Below, piece after piece: positions 1-54,470 of a stretch of 64,000 nt of DNA (positions are counted from its first letter, which is position 1; every line of letters begins with the position of its first letter). Source of the stretch: Escherichia coli (GTDB taxonomy: Bacteria; Pseudomonadota; Gammaproteobacteria; Enterobacterales; Enterobacteriaceae); NCBI RefSeq assembly GCF_044647545.1, contig NZ_CP172818.1; one strand, written 5' to 3'. The position numbers and the translations under genes were made by a program. The notes beneath the pieces are model-generated. The model worked only from the letters and a program-made list of their open reading frames with translations, made no database searches and was not told the DNA's origin.

Positions 1-311
1 CGGACAAAATTTGCGGCATCCTGATGAAAAATATCGCCCGAGTTGAGAAACAACGCGAACTTGCCTTGTGCCATCGCAATGCCCTTGTTCATGGCGTCGT
101 AGATACCGTTATCTGGCTCGCTGACAAAGCGTAGGTTATAGATACCCTTGAGATTTTCCAGATACTCACGGGTACCGTCGTTGGAACCGCCATCGACAAC
201 AATCCATTCGAAGCTGATATCGTCCACCTGCGCTAGATGCGCCAGCGAGGCATGTGTTTTGACTATCCCTTCGAGGTTACGAAACGCGACAGTGATTATG
301 CTAAGCAACAT
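1..311 (-). CDS. wcaE: Colanic acid biosynthesis glycosyltransferase WcaE, 5' portion only (gene runs off the window start)
   Basis: Reverse-complement translation from 311 begins MLLSIIT...; ATG confirmed at 309-311 (cat on + strand); position directly downstream of wcaD in the colanic acid operon. Confidence 0.8.
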
Positions 312-321
312 GTTCTTATTC

Positions 322-1539
322 TTACCTCGTAATATTTAACGCTTTTCGCAAAATAAACGGACAGACGATTAAAAATGCATATTCCGGGCTAAATATCGAA
401 CCGGTAAAAAACAGCGATACCGGAGTAAAAAGATATAATTGCACGCGAAAATTGCGGTTATCACCAAAAGCGTTGATCATCATTTTTATCACTTTCCCCA
501 TGTACCACAGTGATAAAAACACTGCGAACCAGGAAAAATAAATAATCAGCAGATACAAACCATTGTCTATGGTTTTTCCGATATCCGCACCGTTAAATAT
601 TCCGAATGATGCGACATATTCATAAAGTGAGCCAAATCTGACTACACCGTCAATATGGGTCAAAGAATAACCGACCATCACCAGCGGACCGACAATACGA
701 TAATACGATGACGATCCTTCCGTGCCTAAATCCCCCAGACGGGTGGAAATATAAGGAAACGCGATTACCACACCAACCAGGAATACAGCCAGAGAAATCA
801 ATGCTAACGGTAACTTTTTCTTAATCGCCTCTTTATTCAGATATTGAAATGCCCACTCCAGCAAATAAAAAAGGATAAAGGTCATAACCCCTGAAAACGA
901 TCCGGATAATATTATCCCTGCGAGAATCATAGCATCGGTTTTAGGCGTTTTGATACCAAACTGTTTGATGCTGAGCCAAATTGAGATTAATGCCAGAGCG
1001 AAAAATGCCGGTTCGAAATAAAGTGCTGTCGTGCGCTTGCCGCCGAATTTGATGAAATTCAGCACATAGCTGTTGCTGTAAATCAGATATTTCGAAATCG
1101 ACTCCATAATACTGCTGCCACCGGTGAGGATAATTTGCGCCATCTCCACTGCCGCCAGCGCCACCACCAGCCCGACCACCAGATAAAAGAAACGTAATAT
1201 CTTGCGATGGTTGTGTGGCGAAATCGTTTTAAAGCGAATACTCCACACCATGCCAATAATGATCACAATATAGACAAACAGCATGGTTGAAGTGACGTAT
1301 TTACTGGCATCCAACGACTGACCAAACAGGTAGTTAAACGCCGTGAGTCCCGCGCCAATCCCTAAGGCAATCATCAATTTTTTAACGCTGATGCGTTCTA
1401 AAAACAGCAGTAACAAGACAGGTAAAAAAGTGACGATGGTGATGGGGAAACTTTCGCCAAGCTGGGCGATTTTGACGTTAACCAACAGGTAAATCAGCGG
1501 CAGCAGCAGGTAGCTACAGATTCTGATAGAAGTTGACAT
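322..1539 (-). CDS. wcaD: Colanic acid polymerase WcaD (polytopic membrane protein)
   Basis: ORF 322..1611; internal Met ([19 protein letters not shown]...) gives the 405-aa product expected for WcaD; ATG confirmed at 1537-1539; highly hydrophobic. Confidence 0.85.
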
Positions 1540-2731
1540 ACTCCTCCAGCATCTGTTGTCCACTGTAGGCGGCGCGGCTGCGCTGGCTGAACTCAGCCAG
1601 CGTGGTACCAAATATCGCCTGCGCGATTTCCGGTTTGCTTAACTGCACCAGTTGCAGCACGTCTTCTTCGCTGACGGTTTTACCACCGGATTTTTGCAAC
1701 ACTTCCCGCGCCGCGTCGCTATGGGTGGCAATCACCGGCACACCAATCGATAGCGCCTCACACAAAATCAGTGGGTAGTTATCGACGCGAGAACTAAATA
1801 CCAGCGCATCCATCTGATTGAGCGCGCTCATCAACTTGCGCTTGTCAGTTTCAAAGCCGTGATTAACCACGTTGCCAGCGGTGAACGGCGAGAACTTACC
1901 AAAGGTATGCAGTTCAATTTTGTCGCCCAGCGCCATCATCTCACGCACCAGTTGCTGGTTAGTCTTGCCGTCGTAACGCAGGTCATGCGCTACCACCGCG
2001 ATTTTCGGCTTGCCCTGAGTTTCGCGCACCGGAGGCAAGTCCACCAGAATCGCTTCGGTTGCCATATCAATGCCATTATTGATAATCCGGCAACGCCCTG
2101 GCCCGTACAGACTATTGAAAGCATCAGCCACATGCTGGCTGGGGGAAATAAACTGACAGCCCAGTGCCAGCATCTCACGGAATAACTGGCGTTTGCCCGC
2201 TACCAGCTGGTGTGCGCGATCAATCTTCACCGGCGGATAGTTATTTAAGGTCGGGCATTTCTGGCAGCCCGTTTTCCAGCCTTCGCAACCGTCGGTAAAA
2301 GCGCAGCGTCCGGTAACGCTCCAGTGGTCGTGCAGCGTCCAGACCAGAGTGACATCCGATTTGTGGTTTTTCACTTTTTCGCAAAAGCGCACCACGCTCT
2401 TAAGATTCAACCAGTAGCTGTGCAGCACATGAAAATGCAGGACCACCGGTCCCGGTGTGCGAGTAATGGTGCGATATAACTCATTGAAATTGCCGAACAG
2501 ATCGCGATTAAACAGACGAAACAGGGCAATGTTCGCCATCGCGGTCATCCGCGGCGTATGTTTGATGACCTGCGGATAGTTCTGATGGCTGACGCTCTCT
2601 TTGCCGCCTTTGCCGTAGCCGTAGACAAAATGTGACGCCAGCCCCTGTTGCAGCGCGCGCTGGTGGAGATCTAACGCCACACCTGCTGCCCCGCCTTCCG
2701 CCAGTCGCACATTGAATTGCAGAATATTCAT
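1514..2731 (-). CDS. wcaC: Colanic acid biosynthesis glycosyltransferase WcaC (GT4-like)
   Basis: 405-aa ORF (MNILQFNVRLAEGGAAGVALDLHQRALQQG...); overlaps wcaD start by 26 bp as in an operon. Confidence 0.9.
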   Translation of the reverse strand: MNILQFNVRLAEGGAAGVALDLHQRALQQGLASHFVYGYGKGGKESVSHQNYPQVIKHTPRMTAMANIALFRLFNRDLFGNFNELYRTITRTPGPVVLHFHVLHSYWLNLKSVVRFCEKVKNHKSDVTLVWTLHDHWSVTGRCAFTDGCEGWKTGCQKCPTLNNYPPVKIDRAHQLVAGKRQLFREMLALGCQFISPSQHVADAFNSLYGPGRCRIINNGIDMATEAILVDLPPVRETQGKPKIAVVAHDLRYDGKTNQQLVREMMALGDKIELHTFGKFSPFTAGNVVNHGFETDKRKLMSALNQMDALVFSSRVDNYPLILCEALSIGVPVIATHSDAAREVLQKSGGKTVSEEDVLQLVQLSKPEIAQAIFGTTLAEFSQRSRAAYSGQQMLEEYVNFYQNL

Positions 2732-3216
2732 TTAATTACCTTCACTCGCGCTTTTTCTCCCACCACCAGCGCGTTGTCCGGGACAGAGTCGAGCACCACG
2801 CTGCCCGCGCCCACGGTGACGTTGTTACCAAGCGTGATATCACCAAGAATAATGACGTTGGCACCGAGTTCGACGCCGTTGCCAATGTGTGGACATGCCA
2901 TGTTATCGGCACCACGATTGCCGATAGTGACGCCGTGGCGAATGGTGAAATCATCCCCCGCGACCACGTTTTTATTGATTACTACGGCGTAACCGTGATG
3001 GATAGTAAAGCGGCGGCCAATGGTCGCGGCAGCCTGGATTTCATAACCGAAAAAGCATTCGGTGATAATGCGATACAGCACCAGCAGCGGGGCCGCCCAC
3101 AGATTGTTGAGGACGTTCTTTTTGCGCCACACCGAACAAAAATGAGCGGCGCGATAGGCAAGAACCATGCAGCACGGGCGTAAACTCCAGCTGTTGGCGC
3201 GCAGATCTTCCAGCAT
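2728..3216 (-). CDS. wcaB: Colanic acid biosynthesis acetyltransferase WcaB (hexapeptide-repeat family)
   Basis: 162-aa ORF with left-handed beta-helix hexapeptide repeats (IGxxVxIxHGVTIGN...); 4-bp overlap with wcaC. Confidence 0.9.
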   Translation of the reverse strand: MLEDLRANSWSLRPCCMVLAYRAAHFCSVWRKKNVLNNLWAAPLLVLYRIITECFFGYEIQAAATIGRRFTIHHGYAVVINKNVVAGDDFTIRHGVTIGNRGADNMACPHIGNGVELGANVIILGDITLGNNVTVGAGSVVLDSVPDNALVVGEKARVKVIK

Positions 3217-3218
3217 CT

Positions 3219-4058
3219 TTAGCGCCCCCGAATACCATCAGCCAGACGTTTGCCGTTACGCACCGACAGCAGCGTCAGCAAAGTGCGCCAGGTCATGCGT
3301 TTATTGCGGATCTGGTAGAGGGTAAACAGCTGATATTTTTTGCTGGCGCGGTCGAATTTGTCTTTGTGCTTACGGTAAAAGTGGAAGTATCCGGAGAATT
3401 TTTTCGGTGACGAGGTGATCTGCATTTCGCCGTGATTGATATGCAGGATCTGCGTCGCCTCTTCCACTTTCCACGGTTCGCCATACTCCACCACCATCCG
3501 CAGGAAGATGTCGTAATCCTGTGCCGCTTTCAGTTCGGTATCAAACAAACACTCTTTGAAACGCCACGCCCAGGTAAAGACCTGATTGCCAATGATATTG
3601 CGTTTGTAGAACAGGCGGCGTGAATACGGCGATTTGGGATACAGCGGTAGGCTTGCCGGTTGGGAATAGACTTCGCCCTGGCAAACGTAGTCGTTAGCGT
3701 ACAAAAAGGCGTGAGTGACCAGTTGCTGTTTATGGGCGAGGAAGACGCTCAGGCGGTTGGGTGTCCATTCATCATCATCATCGATCCCGGTGATGTATTC
3801 CCCTTGCGCCAGCATAATCGCCTGGTTACGTACCGCGCACGCCCCGCTGTTAATGTCGTTGTGAATGTAAGTGATACGCGGATCGTTGAGGGCGGTGACG
3901 TACTGTTGTAGTTGTTCCCAGGAGGTGGAGCAATCATCCACGATGATCATCTCCCAGTTACTGTAGTCCTGGCGCAGGACCGATTTTATCGCCCGAATAG
4001 CCAGTTGTTGGCGGTTCCAGGTCGGCATATAGATTGAAATCAGCGGATTGTCTTTCAT
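3219..4058 (-). CDS. wcaA: Colanic acid biosynthesis glycosyltransferase WcaA (GT2)
   Basis: 279-aa ORF, N-terminal GT2 signature (ISIYMPTWNRQQLAIRAIKSVLRQDYSNWEMIIVDDCS). Confidence 0.9.
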   Translation of the reverse strand: MKDNPLISIYMPTWNRQQLAIRAIKSVLRQDYSNWEMIIVDDCSTSWEQLQQYVTALNDPRITYIHNDINSGACAVRNQAIMLAQGEYITGIDDDDEWTPNRLSVFLAHKQQLVTHAFLYANDYVCQGEVYSQPASLPLYPKSPYSRRLFYKRNIIGNQVFTWAWRFKECLFDTELKAAQDYDIFLRMVVEYGEPWKVEEATQILHINHGEMQITSSPKKFSGYFHFYRKHKDKFDRASKKYQLFTLYQIRNKRMTWRTLLTLLSVRNGKRLADGIRGR

Positions 4059-4092
4059 AGGTTGTTCTCCCGGCTTATGAGCTGGTTTGCTT

Positions 4093-4129
4093 GCCGGATG
4101 CGGCGTGAACGCCTTATTATCCGGCCTAC
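4093..4129. repeat. REP (repetitive extragenic palindrome) element between wcaA and wzc
   Basis: gccggatgcggcgtgaacgccttattatccggcctac matches the canonical E. coli REP consensus. Confidence 0.65.
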
Positions 4130-4153
4130 GGGGCGGTGCGAATGCAGGCGTCG

Positions 4154-6316
4154 TTATTTCGCATCCGACTTATATTCGTATTCGTAATAGCCATAATCCT
4201 GATACGCGCTGGCGCGGCGGAAGATGGAGTTCAGAATCACCCCTTTCACCGGAATACCGTTTTGCTCAAAGCGGCTCAGACTGGTTTCCACTTCTTTCAA
4301 TGTGTTGACCGCATAACGCGCCACCATTAATGTGGTTCCGACATGACGACCAACAATTGCCGCATCGGTCACTGCCAGAATCGGCGGCGTATCAATCAAC
4401 ACCAGGTCGTAGTTTTTACTCGCCCACTTCACCAGTTCGGCAAAGCGTTCGCTCATTAACAGTTCAGAAGGATTTGGCGGCACCTGACCGCGCGGGATCA
4501 GGTCAAATTTGGCAATAGAGGTCGGTTTAGCAGCGGTAGTAATATCGCCCTGTCCAATCAGAATTTCCGACAGGCCATTAACGTTATTAGTGCCCAACAG
4601 CTCGTGGGTGTAGCCTTTGCGCATATCGCAGTCGATCAACAACACCCGTTTATTGGTCTGGCTAATCACCGCCGCCAGGTTGGCGCAGACAAAGGTTTTA
4701 CCGATTGACGGGCTAACCCCGGTCATCATCAACACATTCTTCTGCGCCTGCATCATCGCGAAGTGCAGACTGGTACGCAGACTGCGGATGGCTTCAATCG
4801 CCAGATCGGTTGGATTCCCCACCGCCAGTAGCTGGCTCTGTTTATAGCGTTTAATCCCTTTGATGGTTTTGACGCTATCGCGCGCTTTCTGCCATTCCGA
4901 CAACGGGATGCTGGCATAGACACTGATACCGTGTTCTTCCAGCACCTGCGGGCTTTCGATGCCGCGATTAAACAACGAGCGCAGCAGCACACCCACGATA
5001 GAGAGCATCAGGCCAAGGATAATCGCGCCGAGGATAATCAGCCCTTTCTTCGGTTTTAGCACGCCAGGCTGGGTGATTGCCGGGTCAACAATGCGCACAT
5101 CGCCGACGGTGCTGGCTTCGGTGATTTTCAGCTCCTGCTCTTTATTCAGCAGTTGCATATAGACCTGTTGACCAGACTCGACATCGCGGGTCAGACGGAC
5201 AATTTCCTGCTGGGTTTTCGGCATCGCCGTTACGCGACCGTTAAGTTTGGCTTTTTCGTCTTCCAGCGCCTGCCGTTTCTCCAGCAGCGTGCGATACGCC
5301 GGGTGAACTTTGGTGTACAGCTTGGAGATTTCCGCTTCTTTAAAGGTCAGTTCGTTCAACTGCGCGTCGATGTTCACCATCGAATCGAGCACCGCTTTCG
5401 CTTCCAGCGGCAGATCAACTGAATCTTTATCCTGACGGAAGGTATTCAGTTTGTTTTCGGCAACATCAAGGCGGTTACGTACTTCCGGTAACTGTTGCGC
5501 GAGGAAAGCGAGGCTTTTCGACGCTTCCGCCGATTTGCGCTCAATATTTTGTTCCTGATAGTTACGAGCGATGCTGTTAAGAATGTCGCGGATCTGTTCG
5601 CGATCTTCACCGGTATAAGTCAGGCTCAGTACACCTGCGTCTTTGCCGTTCTCCGTTACCGTCAGGCTGTTTTGCAGTTGATTGATCATCCCCAGCGTGG
5701 AGTATTTGGTGACGGTAAACTCACTGCCCGGGCTGGCGTGAATGGCTTCAACCATCAGCGTGACGCCTTCTTTTTTCAGCATCTGGCCCGCTTGCCCACG
5801 GGCGCTAAAGCCGCCATCGCTGATCAGGGTGTAGTTTTTGTTGTCCAGCACATTAAGCGTAAACACCTGATCCGCCATCTCTTTCGGGCGGTTAAAGGTG
5901 GTCACTTTTACCGTCTCGTTCTGGCGTCCCATCAGGCGATCCCAGCCCGCACCGAAAATCGGGAACGTGTTTTTGCTCACTGCAATATCGAGGTCGAGAT
6001 CGTCCACCGTTTTACCAAGCACCAGACGCGAACGAATCAACTGGATCTCGGCGTCCGATGCAGGCGGTTTGTTGGCTAATGCCGATCCGATATCCTGCAC
6101 TAACGAATTGCCGCTGCTTTGCTCGATTTGTACCAGTGCGTCGGCGCTATAAATCGGCGTGGCAAAGAAGGTGTAAACCACGGCACAGAGGGCGAATACG
6201 GCGGTGATGCCAATCACCCACCAGCGCGCTTCAATGACGGTGCCGACCAGGCGACCAATATCGATTTCATCACTGCCCGTTACCGGAGCGGCATGTTGTT
6301 TTACTTTTTCTGTCAT
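4154..6316 (-). CDS. wzc: Tyrosine autokinase Wzc (polysaccharide co-polymerase)
   Basis: ORF 4154..6352; internal Met (MTEKVKQHAAPVTGSDEIDIG...) gives 720 aa; Walker A (GVSPSIGKT), C-terminal Tyr-rich tail (YQDYGYYEYEYKSDAK); ATG confirmed at 6314-6316. Confidence 0.9.
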   Translation of the reverse strand: MTEKVKQHAAPVTGSDEIDIGRLVGTVIEARWWVIGITAVFALCAVVYTFFATPIYSADALVQIEQSSGNSLVQDIGSALANKPPASDAEIQLIRSRLVLGKTVDDLDLDIAVSKNTFPIFGAGWDRLMGRQNETVKVTTFNRPKEMADQVFTLNVLDNKNYTLISDGGFSARGQAGQMLKKEGVTLMVEAIHASPGSEFTVTKYSTLGMINQLQNSLTVTENGKDAGVLSLTYTGEDREQIRDILNSIARNYQEQNIERKSAEASKSLAFLAQQLPEVRNRLDVAENKLNTFRQDKDSVDLPLEAKAVLDSMVNIDAQLNELTFKEAEISKLYTKVHPAYRTLLEKRQALEDEKAKLNGRVTAMPKTQQEIVRLTRDVESGQQVYMQLLNKEQELKITEASTVGDVRIVDPAITQPGVLKPKKGLIILGAIILGLMLSIVGVLLRSLFNRGIESPQVLEEHGISVYASIPLSEWQKARDSVKTIKGIKRYKQSQLLAVGNPTDLAIEAIRSLRTSLHFAMMQAQKNVLMMTGVSPSIGKTFVCANLAAVISQTNKRVLLIDCDMRKGYTHELLGTNNVNGLSEILIGQGDITTAAKPTSIAKFDLIPRGQVPPNPSELLMSERFAELVKWASKNYDLVLIDTPPILAVTDAAIVGRHVGTTLMVARYAVNTLKEVETSLSRFEQNGIPVKGVILNSIFRRASAYQDYGYYEYEYKSDAK

Positions 6317-6318
6317 TC

Positions 6319-6762
6319 TTATACCTGCTCTGCGTTCAATGCCTGCGCCCACTGGCGGGCAGACCGTTCAAGTAATGTGTACACCGCTGCAAACGTTTCC
6401 CGGCTTTTGCGATACGGATCGGGGATTTCACATTCGTTATCCCAGTGACCAAACAGCATCACTTTGCCGCGCATCTCAGGTGCCATCTCGCATAAGCGTT
6501 CGATATGGCGCTTTTCCATGGTCAAAATCAGGTCGTAGTTGCGACACAGGCGACGGCTGATTTGACGGGCACAGTGACCTTCCAGAGACAGTTGATGTTC
6601 TGCGGCGACGCTGATAGCAGTAGGGTCAGCGCCCTTACCGACCAGCGCGCCGAGTCCAGCGGACTCCACTTTCAGCTCCGGGTGATAACGTTGCAGTAAG
6701 CGTTCCGCCGTCGGGGAGCGGCAAATATTGCCGACACAGACAACTAAGATGTTGTTAAACAT
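6319..6762 (-). CDS. wzb: Low-molecular-weight phosphotyrosine phosphatase Wzb
   Basis: 147-aa ORF with CxGNxCRS P-loop (VCVGNICRSP). Confidence 0.9.
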   Translation of the reverse strand: MFNNILVVCVGNICRSPTAERLLQRYHPELKVESAGLGALVGKGADPTAISVAAEHQLSLEGHCARQISRRLCRNYDLILTMEKRHIERLCEMAPEMRGKVMLFGHWDNECEIPDPYRKSRETFAAVYTLLERSARQWAQALNAEQV

Positions 6763-6767
6763 GACAA

Positions 6768-7907
6768 TTACCAGTTATGAATGTCGCTGGCTGTATCCGT
6801 CATGTAACGGACACCGCTAATAGTTGGCAGCAACTGATTGATCAGACGGTTCCAGCGGGAAACCGGGGCGGTGGTGACATACACCACGTCATAAGGTTGC
6901 AGGCGGAATTCTGTCGCCATCACCAGCGACGTGGCATCGGACATATCCAGCTGGTAGATATTGGCAATCTTGCCGTTACGCCCGCCCTCGCCTTTCAGCG
7001 GACGAATGACAAAGATGCCGCTGGCGTTGGAGGTGGTCATGTCGATGCCTTCAGCATTGCCCAGGGCTTCAGTCAGGGTCATGCCGCTAAAGTCCATTTT
7101 CAGGGTGCTCTGTTTCTTCACTTCACCCATCACAAACACTTTCAGATCATCATTACGTGGCACGTAAAGAATATCGCCGGGGTAAAGCAGTCGGTTCTGA
7201 TTGAGGTCGCCGTTTTGCATCAGCGCCTGCAAAGAAATGCGTTCTTCACGACCATTGTGTGTTAGCACTACGTTGCGCCAGTCAGCGGTGTCGGTCAGGC
7301 CACCTGCGGCGTTGATGGCGTCGAGAATGGTCAGTGGCACGTTGGTAATCGCCTGTTGACCGGATTTATTCACCTGACCGGAGATATAGGCTTTTTGCGA
7401 GCGGAAGGCGGCGATATTAACGTCCACCTGCGGGTCAGCGATGTACGTCGCTAAGCGCCCGGTAATATCACTGCGGATTTCAGCGAGCGTTTTCCCCACG
7501 ACGTGAACCTTGCCGATATACGGGTAGAACATGGTGCCGTCAGGCTGTACCCAGTTGCCGGTGTCGCTGGAGCTGCGGTACTGACCGGCTGGCGTGGTGA
7601 GTTCCGGGTGATCCCAGACGGTGACATTAAGAACGTCTCCCGGCCCGACGCGATACTGATAATTCGCGATCTCACTTTCCAGCGTCATATTGGGGCGCGC
7701 TACATTCGGGCGTGGGCGTAATTGATCAATCAGGCGCGGGGTCAACGGATAAACATTCACCATTTTGTCGAGATCGAAATCAGCGTCCTGCTGTTTGATG
7801 ACGTCTTTCCCCATCGTCGACATATTGCTGCCCGGAAGTACTGTGCAACCGCTTATCAAGGTTACTGACACCAATAATGGCATCAATTTCATTTTGGATT
7901 TCATCAT
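6768..7907 (-). CDS. wza: Outer-membrane polysaccharide export lipoprotein Wza
   Basis: 379-aa ORF, lipoprotein signal with lipobox (LISGC), Wza/OPX family sequence. Confidence 0.9.
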
Positions 7908-8085
7908 TGTTTATTTATCACTTTGGCAGAGTAATTATCCTGTGCACTATTAATAGCAATGTCGCCATGCACATTTACCTTGCAGTTAATTGAATAAAAA
8001 TTTAACTGGCATCAGTCCTAAAAAAATTGATTTCATCCGCAGGCTATTGACAGAATAATTCAGACTGGTCTTTCAGGCATCCAGA

Positions 8086-8097
8086 CACGCTACCGCC
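8086..8097 (-). promoter_or_regulatory. ops element (RfaH recruitment site) within the JUMPstart sequence of the wza leader
   Basis: + strand cacgctaccgcc is the reverse complement of ops GGCGGTAGCGTG; lies about 180 nt upstream of the wza start codon on the transcribed strand. Confidence 0.75.
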
Positions 8098-8345
8098 CCT
8101 GGCTTTTTAGCTACCAATACACTGATTTAGCTTAATTTTTAAAACCCTCTCAACATACAGTCGTTGATGAGAAAGGGTTATTGCGGAAATTAACTTCCGA
8201 ATATAAGGTGACATTATGGTAATTGAATATTGGCTCTCCAATAATGCAGGAGGAAGTGTTACAGCTAACGGAATAGCAGGCAAGGTAACAATTCGGCAAT
8301 TGGCTATTTTTAAGAATTATATTAAGTGTCATTCAATATGGTTTT

Positions 8346-8359
8346 TAGGAGTTTCTTTA
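8346..8359 (-). promoter_or_regulatory. Candidate RcsAB box of the cps (wza) promoter (weak match)
   Basis: taggagtttcttta partly resembles the reverse complement of the RcsAB box consensus TaAGaatatTCctA; position is plausible but the match is poor. Confidence 0.25.
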
Positions 8360-8565
8360 GGTTGACAATATTTAATATAGTGTCTCCATATGAGATATTT
8401 CTTAAATAACGCTTTATTATTACCGCTTATAATTCGGGGATAATGTGAGGTTATAAACCTCAAATAATATGAGATAAATAGTGCTGCAACATTGCATTTT
8501 TGCCCCGATTTATCCATGATCGAATTGTGACATTTGTCATACAACGAATAGGTTTTGTACTTACT

Positions 8566-10149
8566 ATGGAATGGATTGCCGATCCGTCTATCTGGGCTGG
8601 ATTAATCACGCTGATTGTGATCGAACTGGTCCTCGGCATTGATAACCTGGTCTTTATTGCCATCCTCGCCGAAAAACTACCGCCGAAGCAGCGCGACCGC
8701 GCACGGGTTACCGGGCTGCTGCTGGCGATGTTAATGCGCCTGTTACTGCTGGCGTCAATCTCCTGGCTGGTCACCCTGACTCAACCGCTGTTCAGCTTCC
8801 GCTCGTTTACCTTTAGCGCCCGCGACTTAATCATGCTGTTTGGTGGTTTCTTCCTGCTGTTCAAAGCCACGATGGAGCTGAACGAACGGCTGGAAGGGAA
8901 AGACAGCAATAACCCCACGCAACGCAAAGGTGCGAAGTTCTGGGGGGTGGTGACACAAATTGTGGTACTGGACGCCATCTTCTCACTCGACTCGGTGATT
9001 ACCGCCGTCGGGATGGTCGACCATTTACTGGTCATGATGGCCGCCGTCGTTATCGCTATCAGCCTGATGTTGATGGCCAGCAAGCCGTTAACGCAATTTG
9101 TTAACAGTCACCCGACGATCGTTATTCTCTGCTTAAGCTTCCTGTTGATGATTGGCTTTAGCCTGGTGGCAGAAGGTTTCGGCTTCGTCATTCCGAAAGG
9201 CTACCTGTACGCTGCTATTGGTTTCTCGGTGATGATCGAGGCGCTCAATCAGTTGGCTATCTTTAACCGGCGACGTTTTCTTTCCGCTAACCAGACGCTG
9301 CGCCAGCGAACTACCGAAGCGGTAATGCGCCTGTTAAGCGGGCAAAAAGAAGATGCGGAACTGGATGCCGAAACCGCGTCTATGCTGGTGGATCATGATA
9401 ATCAGCAAATCTTTAATCCGCAGGAACGGCGGATGATTGAGCGGGTACTTAATCTTAACCAGCGTACCGTCAGCAGCATTATGACGTCGCGCCACGATAT
9501 TGAGCATATCGATCTCAACGCACCGGAAGAAGAAATCCGCCAGTTGCTGGAGCGAAATCAGCACACGCGACTGGTGGTTACTGATGGCGATGACGCGGAA
9601 GATTTGCTCGGTGTTGTTCACGTTATCGACCTGTTACAACAGTCACTGCGCGGCGAACCGCTCAACCTGCGGGTGTTGATTCGCCAGCCGCTGGTGTTCC
9701 CGGAAACCTTGCCGTTGTTACCTGCCCTGGAGCAGTTCCGTAATGCCCGCACACACTTTGCTTTTGTAGTGGATGAGTTTGGCTCGGTGGAAGGGATTGT
9801 GACATTAAGTGACGTCACAGAAACCATTGCCGGTAACTTACCGAATGAAGTGGAAGAGATCGACGCCCGCCATGATATTCAGAAGAATGCCGACGGTTCC
9901 TGGACGGCGAATGGTCATATGCCGCTGGAAGATCTGGTGCAATATGTGCCGCTGCCGCTGGATGAAAAACGTGAATATCACACCATTGCCGGGCTATTGA
10001 TGGAATATTTGCAGCGTATTCCAAAACCTGGCGAAGAAGTTCAGGTGGGGGATTATTTGCTTAAAACGTTGCAGGTGGAAAGCCATCGCGTGCAGAAGGT
10101 GCAAATTATTCCGCTACGTAAGGATGGCGAGATGGAGTACGAGGTGTGA
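8566..10149 (+). CDS. yegH: Inner membrane protein YegH (TerC-like membrane domain with CBS and CorC/HlyC domains)
   Basis: ORF 8500..10149; start taken at [16 protein letters not shown] (ATG 8566), 527 aa; N-terminal transmembrane segments, C-terminal CBS pair. Confidence 0.85.
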
Positions 10150-10348
10150 TGGTATCAGTCATTTTACCCGATAGCCGAAAGGAATAAGATGAGGGAACCG
10201 CGCCAGCGGCGATTTACCGCCGGGAACCCGGGTTGCCAGGGTGGTGGCGATTGAGCCACCCTGGCACGTTCACCGGCTTAAGCGTTCCATAGTAGCGAGG
10301 AACATCAAGTGAACGGAACAGCCTTCGATCTTACATATTCAGAATATA

Positions 10349-10531
10349 ATGGTGCCGCCCGCTCGCGATGCTGATGGGATCTATCACGTCATGTATGTCG
10401 CAAAATTTGAAGAAGCGGTTTACGTATTGCATTGTTTTCAAAAAAAAACACAAACTACCAGTCAATCGGAAATTGATTTAGCCAAACGACGCTATAAAAA
10501 ACTTGTTCAGGAGGGGAAAAATAAAAATTAA
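10349..10531 (+). pseudogene. C-terminal remnant of a RelE/ParE-superfamily (HigB/Gp49-like) toxin
   Basis: 60-aa ORF ...GIYHVMYVAKFEEAVYVLHCFQKKTQTTSQSEIDLAKRRYKKLVQE carries the YVLHxFQKK motif of this toxin family; a stop lies immediately upstream in frame and no intact N-terminus or antitoxin is present. Confidence 0.45.
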
Positions 10532-10800
10532 AACCTTTGATAGTGGGTGGGATACGGTGAAGGACCCCCCTGAAGGAGGGGAAAAATTGGGGTTCGCGCC
10601 GGGTTGTAAAGAATAATTAAAAATGGAATGGAAAAAAAAGGGTTAGACCGGGTCGGAGAAATTTTCTTTTGGGGGGGTCACACACCCCCGTATTTTAAAT
10701 TCGACAAGGGGAAATCTCAATTTTTTATATATAAATAAATATAATATTATGGGCGCATATGGAGGTTCATATAATAAATATAAAAAATTAAAATACACAT
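10532..10800. repeat. Low-complexity, homopolymer-rich block (probable sequence artifact or insertion)
   Basis: Runs such as gaaggacccccctgaaggaggggaaaaattgggg, tttgggggggtcacacacccccg and AT-only stretches; composition unlike flanking E. coli DNA; no coding or RNA signature. Confidence 0.6.
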
Positions 10801-10820
10801 AGGCTTTATAGTAATAAAAA

Positions 10821-23430: not shown

Positions 23431-23611
23431 AAGAAATCCTTTCTTAGAGAATTATTGAGGTCCGGTATCATACCGATTGCAATAATGAAATAAGAGCAAA
23501 CGAAGAAACTTTCAGAATTAGGCCCGGCGGCGCAGAAAATTTTGCTATTCGCCTCGCAAGAACGGAGAGCCGTCGATTGACACTAAGGGCGGAGTGACAT
23601 AATTTCAGGAG

Positions 23612-23755
23612 TGAGGGTTAGGGAGAGGTTTCCCCCCTCCCCCTGGTGTTCTTAGTAAGCCTGGAAGCTAATCACTAAGAGTATCACCAGTATGATGACG
23701 TGCTTCATCATAACCCTTTCCTTATTAAAAGCCCTCTTCTCCGGGAGAGGGTTTC
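23612..23755 (+). ncRNA. sibA: SibA antisense sRNA (type I antitoxin of ibsA)
   Basis: Strong promoter ttgaca-N17-taattt at 23577-23605; transcript fully antisense to ibsA; terminator hairpin ccctcttctccgggagaggg + ttt at 23732-23754; ~144 nt. Confidence 0.6.
23652..23711 (-). CDS. ibsA: Type I toxin IbsA (19-aa hydrophobic peptide)
   Basis: Minus-strand ORF atgatgaagcacgtcatcatactggtgatactcttagtgattagcttccaggcttactaa = MMKHVIILVILLVISFQAY. Confidence 0.7.
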   Translation of the reverse strand: MMKHVIILVILLVISFQAY

Positions 23756-23947
23756 CCGTTTCAGCGTCCCGCTGAAATCGTCGGCTTACCTCCTTTCGCC
23801 CTGAATGCAGTCTATCGCTAACGCGTGAACAAAATAGTTTCCCCTGTGATTATTGCGTAACGTCTCGCAAAGAATATTTGCTCGCAGGATCGCAGACTAC
23901 AAAGCCTGCGGATTGACAATCTGATTGTGAAGGCATACTTTCAGGAG

Positions 23948-24083
23948 TGAGGGTAGAGCGGGGTTTCCCCCGCCCTGGTAGTCTTAGTATGCTGGCCAGC
24001 TAATCACTAAGAGCACCACGATGATGATCCACTTCATCATGACCCTTTCCTTATTTAAGGCCCCTTCCTCGGGAGGGGCTTTC
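23948..24083 (+). ncRNA. sibB: SibB antisense sRNA (type I antitoxin of ibsB)
   Basis: Promoter ttgaca-N17-tacttt at 23913-23941; antisense to ibsB; terminator hairpin ccccttcctcgggagggg at 24061-24078; ~136 nt. Confidence 0.6.
23984..24040 (-). CDS. ibsB: Type I toxin IbsB (18-aa hydrophobic peptide)
   Basis: Minus-strand ORF translating to MMKWIIIVVLLVISWPAY, paralogous to ibsA. Confidence 0.65.
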   Translation of the reverse strand: MMKWIIIVVLLVISWPAY

Positions 24084-24318: not shown

Positions 24319-25566
24319 ATGAAAGGCAGTTATAAATCCCGTTGGGTAATCGTAATCGTGGTGGTTATCGCCGCCATCGCCGCATTCTGGTTCTGGCAAG
24401 GCCGCAATGACTCCCGGAGTGCAGCCCCAGGGGCGACGAAACAAGCGCAGCAATCGCCAGCGGGTAGTCGCCGTGGTATGCGTGCCGGTCCATTAGCCCC
24501 GGTTCAGGCAGCGACCGCCGTAGAACAAGCTGTGCCACGTTATCTCACCGGGCTTGGCACCATTACCGCCGCTAATACTGTTACGGTGCGCAGCCGCGTG
24601 GACGGTCAACTGATGGCGTTGCATTTCCAGGAAGGCCAGCAGGTCAAAGCAGGCGATTTACTGGCAGAAATTGACCCCAGCCAGTTCAAAGTTGCATTAG
24701 CACAAGCCCAGGGCCAACTGGCAAAAGATAAAGCCACGCTTGCCAACGCCCGCCGTGATCTGGCGCGTTATCAACAACTGGTAAAAACCAATCTCGTATC
24801 TCGTCAGGAGCTGGATGCCCAACAGGCGCTGGTCAGTGAAACCGAAGGCACCATTAAGGCTGATGAAGCAAGCGTCGCCAGCGCACAGCTGCAACTCGAC
24901 TGGAGCCGCATCACCGCACCAGTCGATGGTCGCGTTGGTCTCAAGCAGGTTGATGTTGGTAACCAAATCTCCAGTGGTGATACCACCGGGATTGTGGTGA
25001 TCACCCAGACGCATCCTATCGATTTGCTCTTTACCCTGCCGGAAAGCGATATCGCTACCGTAGTACAGGCGCAAAAAACCGGAAAACCGCTGGTTGTTGA
25101 AGCCTGGGATCGCACCAACTCGAAGAAATTAAGTGAAGGCACGCTGTTAAGTCTCGATAACCAAATCGATGCCACTACCGGTACGATTAAAGTGAAAGCA
25201 CGCTTTAATAATCAGGATGATGCGCTGTTTCCCAATCAGTTTGTTAACGCGCGTATGTTAGTCGACACCGAACAAAACGCCGTGGTGATCCCCACCGCCG
25301 CCCTGCAAATGGGCAATGAAGGCCATTTTGTCTGGGTGCTGAATAGCGAAAACAAGGTCAGCAAACATCTGGTGACGCCGGGCATTCAGGACAGTCAGAA
25401 AGTGGTGATCCGCGCAGGTATTTCTGCGGGCGATCGCGTGGTGACGGATGGCATTGATCGCCTGACCGAAGGGGCGAAAGTGGAAGTAGTGGAAGCCCAG
25501 AGCGCCACCACTTCGGAAGAGAAAGCCACCAGCCGCGAATACGCGAAAAAAGGAGCACGCTCCTGA
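24319..25566 (+). CDS. mdtA: Multidrug efflux periplasmic adaptor (membrane fusion protein) MdtA
   Basis: ORF 24172..25566; start taken at [26 protein letters not shown] (ATG 24319), 415 aa; stop overlaps the mdtB start (TGATG). Confidence 0.9.
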
Positions 25567-35813: not shown

Positions 35814-36044
35814 TGACGATGCCGGGCGTGGGTTGTTGGCGTCCGGCTTTATATCAAAACAACTCTTATTTATTGATAATTAAGATTAACCTCCGCCATT
35901 AAAATATGGGCACTGACGAGCACTCGTTTCTTTCTTTTTTACCATCCCATACTTATCTTCCTGAATATGTTCATATGCCAAAATATCTTCTAATACTTTC
36001 GACCTACCGGTTTATGAAATACACTGATGAAGATTTTTACTTAC

Positions 36045-36545
<501 letters not shown>

Positions 36546-36653
36546 AGCTAAACCCGCCGATTGCGCTACAATGCCCGCCCTTAAAGTGGGGGCACTCCCC
36601 TAACCGCTTCATCAGGTGAAGCGGATCTGACCTGTCATCAGAACGAGAGAATT

Positions 36654-38015
36654 ATGTTTAAACCGGAACTCCTTTCCCCGGCGGGAACGCTGAAAAATAT
36701 GCGTTACGCTTTCGCTTATGGCGCAGATGCTGTTTATGCGGGCCAGCCGCGTTACTCCCTGCGTGTGCGCAACAACGAATTCAACCACGAAAATCTTCAG
36801 CTCGGCATCAATGAAGCCCACGCGCTGGGGAAAAAGTTTTATGTCGTGGTCAACATTGCACCGCACAACGCCAAGCTGAAAACCTTTATCCGTGACCTGA
36901 AACCGGTGGTGGAGATGGGGCCGGATGCGCTGATTATGTCCGATCCAGGGCTGATTATGCTGGTGCGCGAGCACTTCCCTGAAATGCCGATCCACCTCTC
37001 GGTGCAGGCTAACGCCGTGAACTGGGCGACGGTGAAATTCTGGCAGCAAATGGGACTGACCCGCGTGATCCTCTCTCGCGAGCTGTCGCTGGAAGAGATT
37101 GAAGAGATCCGTAATCAGGTGCCGGATATGGAGATCGAGATCTTCGTTCACGGTGCGCTGTGCATGGCCTACTCCGGTCGCTGCCTGCTCTCTGGCTATA
37201 TCAACAAGCGCGACCCGAACCAGGGCACCTGCACCAACGCCTGCCGCTGGGAGTACAACGTCCAGGAAGGGAAAGAAGATGACGTTGGCAACATCGTGCA
37301 CAAGTACGAGCCGATTCCGGTGCAAAATGTTGAGCCGACGCTGGGCATCGGCGCGCCAACCGACAAAGTGTTTATGATCGAAGAAGCTCAGCGTCCGGGC
37401 GAGTATATGACTGCGTTTGAAGATGAGCACGGCACTTACATCATGAACTCGAAAGATCTGCGCGCTATCGCCCACGTTGAACGCCTGACCAAAATGGGCG
37501 TGCATTCGCTGAAAATCGAAGGTCGTACAAAATCTTTCTACTATTGCGCACGCACCGCGCAGGTTTACCGTAAAGCTATCGATGACGCAGCTGCGGGAAA
37601 ACCATTCGATACCAGCCTGCTGGAAACTCTGGAAGGTCTGGCGCATCGTGGCTATACCGAAGGTTTCCTGCGTCGTCATACTCACGACGATTATCAGAAC
37701 TACGAATACGGTTATTCAGTTTCTGACCGCCAGCAGTTTGTTGGTGAGTTTACCGGTGAGCGCAAGGGCGACCTCGCGGCGGTAGCGGTGAAAAATAAAT
37801 TCTCCGTTGGCGACAGCCTTGAGCTGATGACGCCGCAAGGGAACATTAACTTTACCCTTGAGCATATGGAAAACGCCAAAGGCGAAGCAATGCCGGTCGC
37901 ACCGGGCGATGGTTATACTGTGTGGATCCCGGTCCCGCAGGATCTTGAGCTAAATTACGCGCTGCTGATGCGTAATTTCTCCGGGGAAACCACGCGTAAC
38001 CCCCACGGTAAGTGA
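36654..38015 (+). CDS. yegQ: Peptidase U32-family protein YegQ (TrhP-type tRNA modification enzyme family)
   Basis: 453-aa ORF MFKPELLSPAGTLKNMRYAFAYGADAVYAGQPRYSLRVRNNEF... with U32-family core and conserved Cys cluster. Confidence 0.9.
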   Translation: MFKPELLSPAGTLKNMRYAFAYGADAVYAGQPRYSLRVRNNEFNHENLQLGINEAHALGKKFYVVVNIAPHNAKLKTFIRDLKPVVEMGPDALIMSDPGLIMLVREHFPEMPIHLSVQANAVNWATVKFWQQMGLTRVILSRELSLEEIEEIRNQVPDMEIEIFVHGALCMAYSGRCLLSGYINKRDPNQGTCTNACRWEYNVQEGKEDDVGNIVHKYEPIPVQNVEPTLGIGAPTDKVFMIEEAQRPGEYMTAFEDEHGTYIMNSKDLRAIAHVERLTKMGVHSLKIEGRTKSFYYCARTAQVYRKAIDDAAAGKPFDTSLLETLEGLAHRGYTEGFLRRHTHDDYQNYEYGYSVSDRQQFVGEFTGERKGDLAAVAVKNKFSVGDSLELMTPQGNINFTLEHMENAKGEAMPVAPGDGYTVWIPVPQDLELNYALLMRNFSGETTRNPHGK

Positions 38016-38099
38016 TTAATTTCGATTATTTTTCCCGGATGGAAAATTCTTAGAAACCGATCACATACAGCTGCATTTATTAAGGTTATCATCCGTTTC

Positions 38100-38190
38100 G
38101 CTGAAAAACATAACCCATAAAATGCTAGCTGTACCAGGAACCACCTCCTTAGCCTGTGTAATCTCCCTTACACACACGGGCTTATTTTTT
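38100..38190 (+). ncRNA. cyaR: CyaR (RyeE) Hfq-dependent sRNA
   Basis: gctgaaaaacataacccataaaatgctagctgtaccaggaaccacctccttagcctgtgtaatctccc...gggcttatttttt matches CyaR as I recall it, including the terminator hairpin and U-tail. Confidence 0.8.
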
Positions 38191-38348
38191 ATGCATAAGC
38201 CCTATCTCTGGTAACCGTCTTCCATTGACCACATCGATAGAATCCTCCTTCATAGCACGATGCCTTTCACTTATCGGCATCGTGCTCCCACAGGTTCCGG
38301 CTACGCACAGCCAGAACGCGCATGTTTGACGCTTACCAAAAAATATTC

Positions 38349-38666
38349 TCACTCTCCACATTTGAATGTCAGACGAGCGACGCCATGTAATCCTGCACCT
38401 TCTGTCTTCAGGTCAACTATCTGCATTTTTTTTCCCTGAGTAACACAGAAATGAGCTGCATCATTTTTTACTATATTTTCTGCACCAGAAATTCTGCCCC
38501 TGGCTAAAGAAGCTTCGGCTTCGGTGTAGTATTGGTTATCGAGTTTACGCTGAATATTACTTTTATATGCAAGGCCAAATTTACCGATACTTGTCTCATC
38601 ATTATGCACAGCACAACCAGACATAAGAAAAACACTAATTAATGATATAGCAGCTATCTTTTTCAT
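38349..38666 (-). CDS. yegR: Small secreted/lipoprotein-like protein YegR
   Basis: ORF 38349..38726; start at MKKIAAISLISVFLMSGCAVHNDE (signal peptide with lipobox), 105 aa; ATG confirmed at 38664-38666. Confidence 0.8.
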   Translation of the reverse strand: MKKIAAISLISVFLMSGCAVHNDETSIGKFGLAYKSNIQRKLDNQYYTEAEASLARGRISGAENIVKNDAAHFCVTQGKKMQIVDLKTEGAGLHGVARLTFKCGE

Positions 38667-54334: not shown

Positions 54335-54470
54335 CCTGCCATAACGTGAAGAAGCAATGACCTGGTGGTCCGTGACTTCCCTACGCTGGCATTATCCAGA
54401 TCAGGTGATACGGGTATTTCTCAGCCTTCACGCAGAAGGGCACCCCGAGTCGTTTGGTTGCGATAATAAA
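54335..54470 (-). promoter_or_regulatory. TPP (thi-box) riboswitch in the thiM leader
   Basis: + strand 54374-54446 is the reverse complement of GGGGTGCCCTTCTGCGTGAAGGCTGAGAAATACCCGTATCACCTGATCTGGATAATGCCAGCGTAGGGAAGTC, the thiM aptamer with its CUGAGA element. Confidence 0.8.

Follow-up and report, generated by a model that had tools for sequence, protein, structure and literature searches.

CyaR (RyeE) is a small RNA of Escherichia coli whose transcription is activated by cAMP-CRP and which acts as an Hfq-dependent repressor of ompX, nadE, luxS, yqaE, yobF, and hdeD (PMC5861431). The U-rich tail of CyaR is tied to Hfq in a second report (PMC9765468), in which 41% readthrough is reported at the wild-type terminator; i.e., the terminator is already leaky. 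The gene has also been described from the side of the phages that use it, with ryeE already in the literature as a phage target (PMC3603311) and with the phage copy known to restore an RNA gene after integration into its 3' end (PMC3603311, PMC3333887, PMC3448106). In the K-12 reference, cyaR is b4438, an annotated ncRNA of 87 nt (NC_000913.3, 2167114-2167200). In the record of phage P2 (NC_001895), attP spans 24356-24382 and a binding feature for Int, named "attP core", spans 24356-24383; the overlap between the cyaR 3' end and this core is already known.

Here, we set against these descriptions the cyaR locus of one 64,000-nt stretch of E. coli DNA (hereafter, the window). The window is of an ST648-like E. 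coli, and its positions 1-10172 are identical (100%) to IMT16316, a genome of the nearest lineage that served as a main point of comparison alongside K-12 MG1655.

The cyaR gene and its neighborhood

The window carries the ordinary, already characterized E. coli cyaR where it normally lies. Scanned in full with Rfam, the window matched RF00112 (CyaR_RyeE) at 38098-38187 (+) over the full model (1-85), with 86.8 bits (E = 1.7e-15) against a gathering score of 47 bits, and alignment of 38100-38190 recovered 87/87 bases of MG1655 cyaR together with a 4-base insert. The first-pass annotation had put cyaR just after yegQ, and this is borne out by the RF00112 score, by the complete match to b4438, and by synteny: 84 nt separate the end of yegQ/trhP (38015) from the CyaR 5' end, the position after yegQ/trhP is that seen in MG1655 and in ST648-like genomes, and the gene order runs yegQ-cyaR-yegR-yegS-gatR, followed by the gat operon. 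The elements of the gene and its flanks are as follows.

36654-38015, + strand: yegQ/trhP coding sequence, 453 aa (open reading frame; homologue annotated in IMT16316 and four near-identical genomes)
38050-38065, + strand: candidate CRP half-site pair TTAGAAACCGATCACA (read from the sequence; putative assignment)
38087-38092, + strand: likely -10 hexamer TATCAT (putative, from the sequence), its last base 8 nt before the CyaR 5' end
38100-38190, + strand: cyaR (ryeE) sRNA gene, 91 nt here and 87 nt in K-12
38136-38149, + strand: first hairpin, its loop bearing the target-pairing sequence AGGAACCACCUCCU (anti-Shine-Dalgarno-like); paired in the Rfam consensus and in the minimum-free-energy fold
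38183-38190, + strand: U-rich tail UAUUUUUU at the CyaR 3' end, same as in K-12; expected Hfq-binding tail
38349-38666, - strand: yegR, downstream neighbor (open reading frame; homologous 318-nt gene annotated in relatives)

Upstream of the RNA, the 80 nt 5' of cyaR are identical in the window, K-12, and IMT16316, so control of this copy by cAMP-CRP and Hfq would be expected to be the same as in K-12. The center of the candidate CRP site TTAGAAACCGATCACA lies ~42 nt 5' of the CyaR start, which is a class II-like position. A generic sigma-70 scan of the window made no call at the cyaR TATCAT, as one would expect of a promoter that depends on an activator and lacks a good -35 element. Within the RNA, the first hairpin and its C-rich pairing sequence (GGAACCACCUCCUU) match both the Rfam consensus and MG1655 exactly, and the loop of this hairpin is what we take to be the CyaR pairing region. 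CyaR represses its target mRNAs by base pairing, and in the window its pairing loop, 5' part, and promoter region are all those of K-12.

The ACAC duplication and the predicted terminator

That the window differs from K-12 by extra CA bases in the terminator had been suspected from the sequence. The difference is real in the window: alignment to b4438 yields four added bases, in the context CCCTT-ACAC-ACACGGGC and with both flanks perfect relative to MG1655. The gene belongs to the CyaR/RyeE family in Rfam and is not identical to its K-12 counterpart. IMT16316 carries the K-12 form of cyaR, without the insert. Two features describe the altered region.

38151-38182, + strand: altered terminator hairpin with 8-9 outer pairs, (A)GCCUGUGU/ACACGGGC(U), and a 14-nt loop (from folds)
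38170-38177, + strand: (AC)4, formed by tandem duplication of ACAC (from alignments and a repeat listing; either half may be the insert)

The same annotation had supposed that the added bases would lengthen the stem without disrupting its pairing, and this part of the claim is refuted. The change is confined to the 3' arm of the hairpin and leaves the 5' arm unchanged; with one arm alone altered, the stem cannot lengthen. In ViennaRNA, the wild-type hairpin (GCCUGUGUAA/UUACACGGGC) forms 10 bp around a 6-nt loop at -15.0 kcal/mol, whereas that of the window forms 8 bp around a 14-nt loop at -11.3 kcal/mol, two inner A-U pairs having gone. Folds of the window copy that keep 10 pairs need a 4-nt bulge and are worse still, at -8.8 to -9.5 kcal/mol. 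The insert would therefore be expected either to remove two inner pairs or to force a bulge, and it is predicted to weaken the CyaR terminator hairpin by about 3.7 kcal/mol. The family model agrees in direction: MG1655 cyaR scores 100.7 bits against RF00112 and the window copy 13.9 bits lower, with the 4 nt placed in the Rfam alignment as an insertion that interrupts an 11-pair consensus helix. With a simple terminator scan, a hairpin is called in the wild-type copy of IMT16316 (11 pairs, loop of 6, T-tail) and none in the window copy.

The window copy nonetheless keeps its U-tail and the 8 G+C-rich base pairs of the outer stem, whose predicted pairing probabilities are 0.78-1.0. Since these parts remain, a degree of termination and of binding to Hfq would be expected to persist, and a weaker but functional terminator is conceivable from the fold. 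Were the duplication real, leakier termination and a less stable CyaR 3' end would be the expected consequences.

Two inverted repeats occur near the 3' end of the gene. One (GGGCTTAT...ATAAGCCC, 38178-38202) brackets the T-run at the cyaR 3' end, and the 3' arm of the terminator can thus also pair with downstream DNA; the other, of 11 bp (AGCACGATGCC...GGCATCGTGCT, 38255-38287), lies ~60 nt beyond the stop codon of yegR. IMT16316 and the right junction in K-12 share both.

Overlap with the phage P2 attachment core

Wild-type cyaR ends in 27 nt, AATCTCCCTTACACGGGCTTATTTTTT, that are identical to the P2 attP core (NC_001895, 24356-24382). The core and the signs of sequence corruption described below had both gone unnoticed in the first-pass annotation. 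In the window, the counterpart of the core is a single feature.

38160-38190, no strand assigned: counterpart of the P2 attachment core (attB, locI-type), AATCTCCCTT-ACAC-ACACGGGCTTATTTTTT, empty and split by the insert

MG1655 and IMT16316 match the P2 core at 27/27 positions; in the window, the 27 matching bases are spread over 31. Because ACAC lies within it, the core of the window is no longer identical to P2 attP. The insert sits near the center, between CCC and GGG elements, and the symmetry of CCC...GGG suggests that it falls in the spacer between Int half-sites; a core split in this manner would be expected to abolish recombination by Int. In the window the site is empty, with no prophage between cyaR and yegR. 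In K-12, the ogrK/D' remnant of P2 ("cryptic prophage PR-X") is joined exactly here, starting inside cyaR. In the genome search, about 860 complete genomes align only as far as the terminator, and such truncated matches in many genomes are consistent with prophages inserted at this point.

Occurrence of the duplication in sequence collections

The ACAC insert was found in 0/5,423 complete E. coli genomes that have the locus, nor was any intermediate length found among them; the best full-length alignments in this set were 217/221 and 84/88. A variable-gap pattern allowing an insert of 1-12 nt at the ACAC position likewise matched 0 metagenome contigs, and the control pattern with zero insert matched 88, all of them wild type. 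Of 78 complete metagenome copies, 70 are identical to K-12 CyaR. Among viral sequences, IMG/VR holds 0 cores with a 1-12-nt insert versus >120 wild-type cores, and all matches to P2-like phages in INPHARED align with a 4-nt gap and thus have no insert.

Across about 100,000 GTDB species representatives, no relevant match to the insert pattern was obtained. One 21-nt match in a Bacteroidales metagenome-assembled genome among these representatives was rejected as a chance hit, since ~6 chance matches are expected for 20 specified bases, 298 Gb, and 12 gap lengths.

Private indels and aberrant stretches in the window

Relative to strain DFL.5, the window has 0 SNPs and 5 indels over 15004-64000 (49 kb, with two aberrant patches excluded), and five close relatives all disagree with the window at the five indels, again with perfect flanks. 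Normal divergence does not leave such a pattern, in which 49 kb hold five private indels and no SNP. The indels are the following.

17734: deletion of TCC at the 3' end of alkA; seen in no other complete genome
22022: deletion of A in the pphC/yegI overlap; both open reading frame ends altered, with YegI of 658 aa instead of the natural 646 aa
38174: insertion of ACAC, the cyaR insert
46447: deletion of G in a G5 run between gatY and fbaB
59579: deletion of C (C7 to C6), splitting yehB into open reading frames of 693 aa and 164 aa; also in 1 of 5,266 genomes

In an exact look-up against a protein collection, the 658-aa YegI of the window had no record, whereas the natural 646-aa form, which served as the positive control, was listed in 3,446 of the collection's blocks.

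Closer to cyaR, 1.6 kb upstream of it and between yegP and yegQ, ~450 bases (36090-36545) consist of poly-G/poly-A junk with extreme homopolymers.

36214-36240: run of G27
36303-36330: run of A28
36514-36531: run of A18

Five near-identical genomes have a ParD antitoxin and RelE/ParE toxin pair where the window has this junk. Similarity to the relatives fades gradually from about 35907 and is abruptly 100% again at 36546, and a 119-aa open reading frame inside the patch has no exact record in the protein collection. The interval 35907-36545 is not natural sequence. A second gradual decay, with dense SNPs, 1-2-nt indels, and A/T/G-rich runs, occupies 10360-10820, over a RelE-pseudogene/HTH locus beside asmA, with perfect identity back at about 10820. 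At this same locus, IMT16316 has an IS110 element and the window has none.

A further discontinuity concerns a fimbrial gene.

56384-57418, - strand: yehA fimbrial adhesin open reading frame, 344 aa

Here, a patch at 56467-57444 is 100% the K-12 MG1655 allele, flanked by sequence without SNPs relative to the ST648-like genomes, and those genomes carry a very different yehA allele. Such a patch may reflect either recombination or a composite window. The damage may stem from poor assembly, from a patched consensus, or from generated or edited sequence. Small private peculiarities anywhere in this window are suspect as biology.

Other elements of the window are ordinary for their places. Two Sib antitoxin RNAs (RF00113) at 23577-23726 and 23913-24055 (+), with 147.5 and 136.8 bits, respectively, lie opposite ibs toxin genes, as is usual for the mdtA-yegL interval; in a C-run at 23637, IMT16316 differs by one C and four other relatives agree with the window. 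A TPP riboswitch (RF00059, 71.2 bits; 54361-54457, -) precedes thiMD, and a JUMPstart element (RF01707, 57.3 bits; 8086-8124, -) lies close to where the colanic-acid (wza) cluster begins, both being expected features.

Discussion

We hold with considerable confidence that the locus is known CyaR, that the insert in it is probably artefactual, and that the terminator would be weakened by the insert were it real. The ACAC duplication would most likely be a production error (of assembly, consensus, or generation) as opposed to a natural allele, because it occurs in no other searched sequence and because the window that contains it has other private indels and degenerate stretches. The sequence by itself does not prove an artefact, and a 4-bp tandem duplication is plausible as a real mutation. 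Counter to the artefact reading, the C7-to-C6 change in yehB is shared with one other genome, and not all of the indels need be errors.

The principal rival, which we consider unlikely, is that ACAC represents a genuine and very rare natural allele, one with leakier termination and a destroyed primary P2 site, having arisen by replication slippage or tandem duplication and being tolerated thanks to the remaining U-tail and outer 8 bp. The form of the change would suit this account: the tandem duplication is clean and its flanks are perfect, the outer stem retains its high pairing probabilities, and the P2 site is unoccupied in the window. Some slack in termination may also be tolerated, given that the CyaR terminator is leaky anyway, with 41% readthrough reported (PMC9765468). 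Against it stand the absence of the allele from the 5,423 complete genomes, the 88 metagenome contigs, and the viral collections; a window whose 0 private SNPs, 5 private indels, and junk stretches are unlike real divergence; and the lack of any record for the other window-variant proteins as well.

Two more elaborate origins would make the insert a product of phage traffic or of programmed variation, and both appear far less probable still. The position of the insert, within the 27-nt P2 core, invites the idea of a scar or import, whereby a P2-like phage with a variant attP core integrated, excised, and left its own core behind; integration plus excision can indeed swap core sequence, and P2-like prophages use the site in many genomes, with a remnant in K-12. 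We regard this as highly improbable. Tyrosine recombinases are conservative and leave no duplications, wild-type attB would be an unlikely partner for an attP whose spacer is longer, and neither IMG/VR (0 versus >120 wild-type cores) nor the INPHARED matches contain an insert-bearing core; a phage-derived variant core was rejected on the grounds that no phage in these collections carries one. The least credible of the accounts sees in (AC)n a phase-variable (contingency) microsatellite by which CyaR termination is tuned. The tract is a dinucleotide repeat, and its length differs between the window and all others; however, (AC)2 is the only form elsewhere, with no (AC)3 or (AC)5 in thousands of genomes, and two to four repeat units are far below the lengths that slip at useful rates. 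With no other repeat length in the data, a phase-variable repeat was likewise rejected. A production error remains our preferred explanation.

If the duplication were nonetheless real, it would change the level or 3' end of CyaR, and hence Hfq-dependent regulation, and at the same time the site would be lost as a P2 integration target, with P2-type phages forced to secondary sites. A single mutation would then link sRNA termination to the loss of a phage site, which would be of modest interest. Nothing here is new in kind, as CyaR, its location, and the P2 core overlap are all established. The biological weight of the locus is therefore small, and the useful results are negative and practical ones; i.e., that the hairpin is predicted to be weakened, that the variant is unique among many thousands of sequences, and that the window is suspect.

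Comparison with described systems

Ultimately, the closest described system is CyaR of K-12, with which the window copy shares 87 positions, the promoter region, the first hairpin with its CCACCUCC loop, the U-tail, and the genomic place. It differs in the extra ACAC of the terminator 3' arm, which costs 13.9 bits in Rfam and, by prediction, converts a hairpin of 10 pairs and a 6-nt loop into one of 8 pairs and a 14-nt loop that is 3.7 kcal/mol weaker. With respect to P2 attP, the likeness lies in the 27-nt AATCTCCCTTACACGGGCTTATTTTTT being the cyaR 3' end in wild-type E. coli, where P2-type prophages and remnants are joined, and the difference lies in the site of the window being empty and its core split by 4 bases. 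The same principle, that of an sRNA terminator end serving as an integrase target, holds for sdsR/ryeB (in Salmonella) and ssrA, with different genes and different phages.
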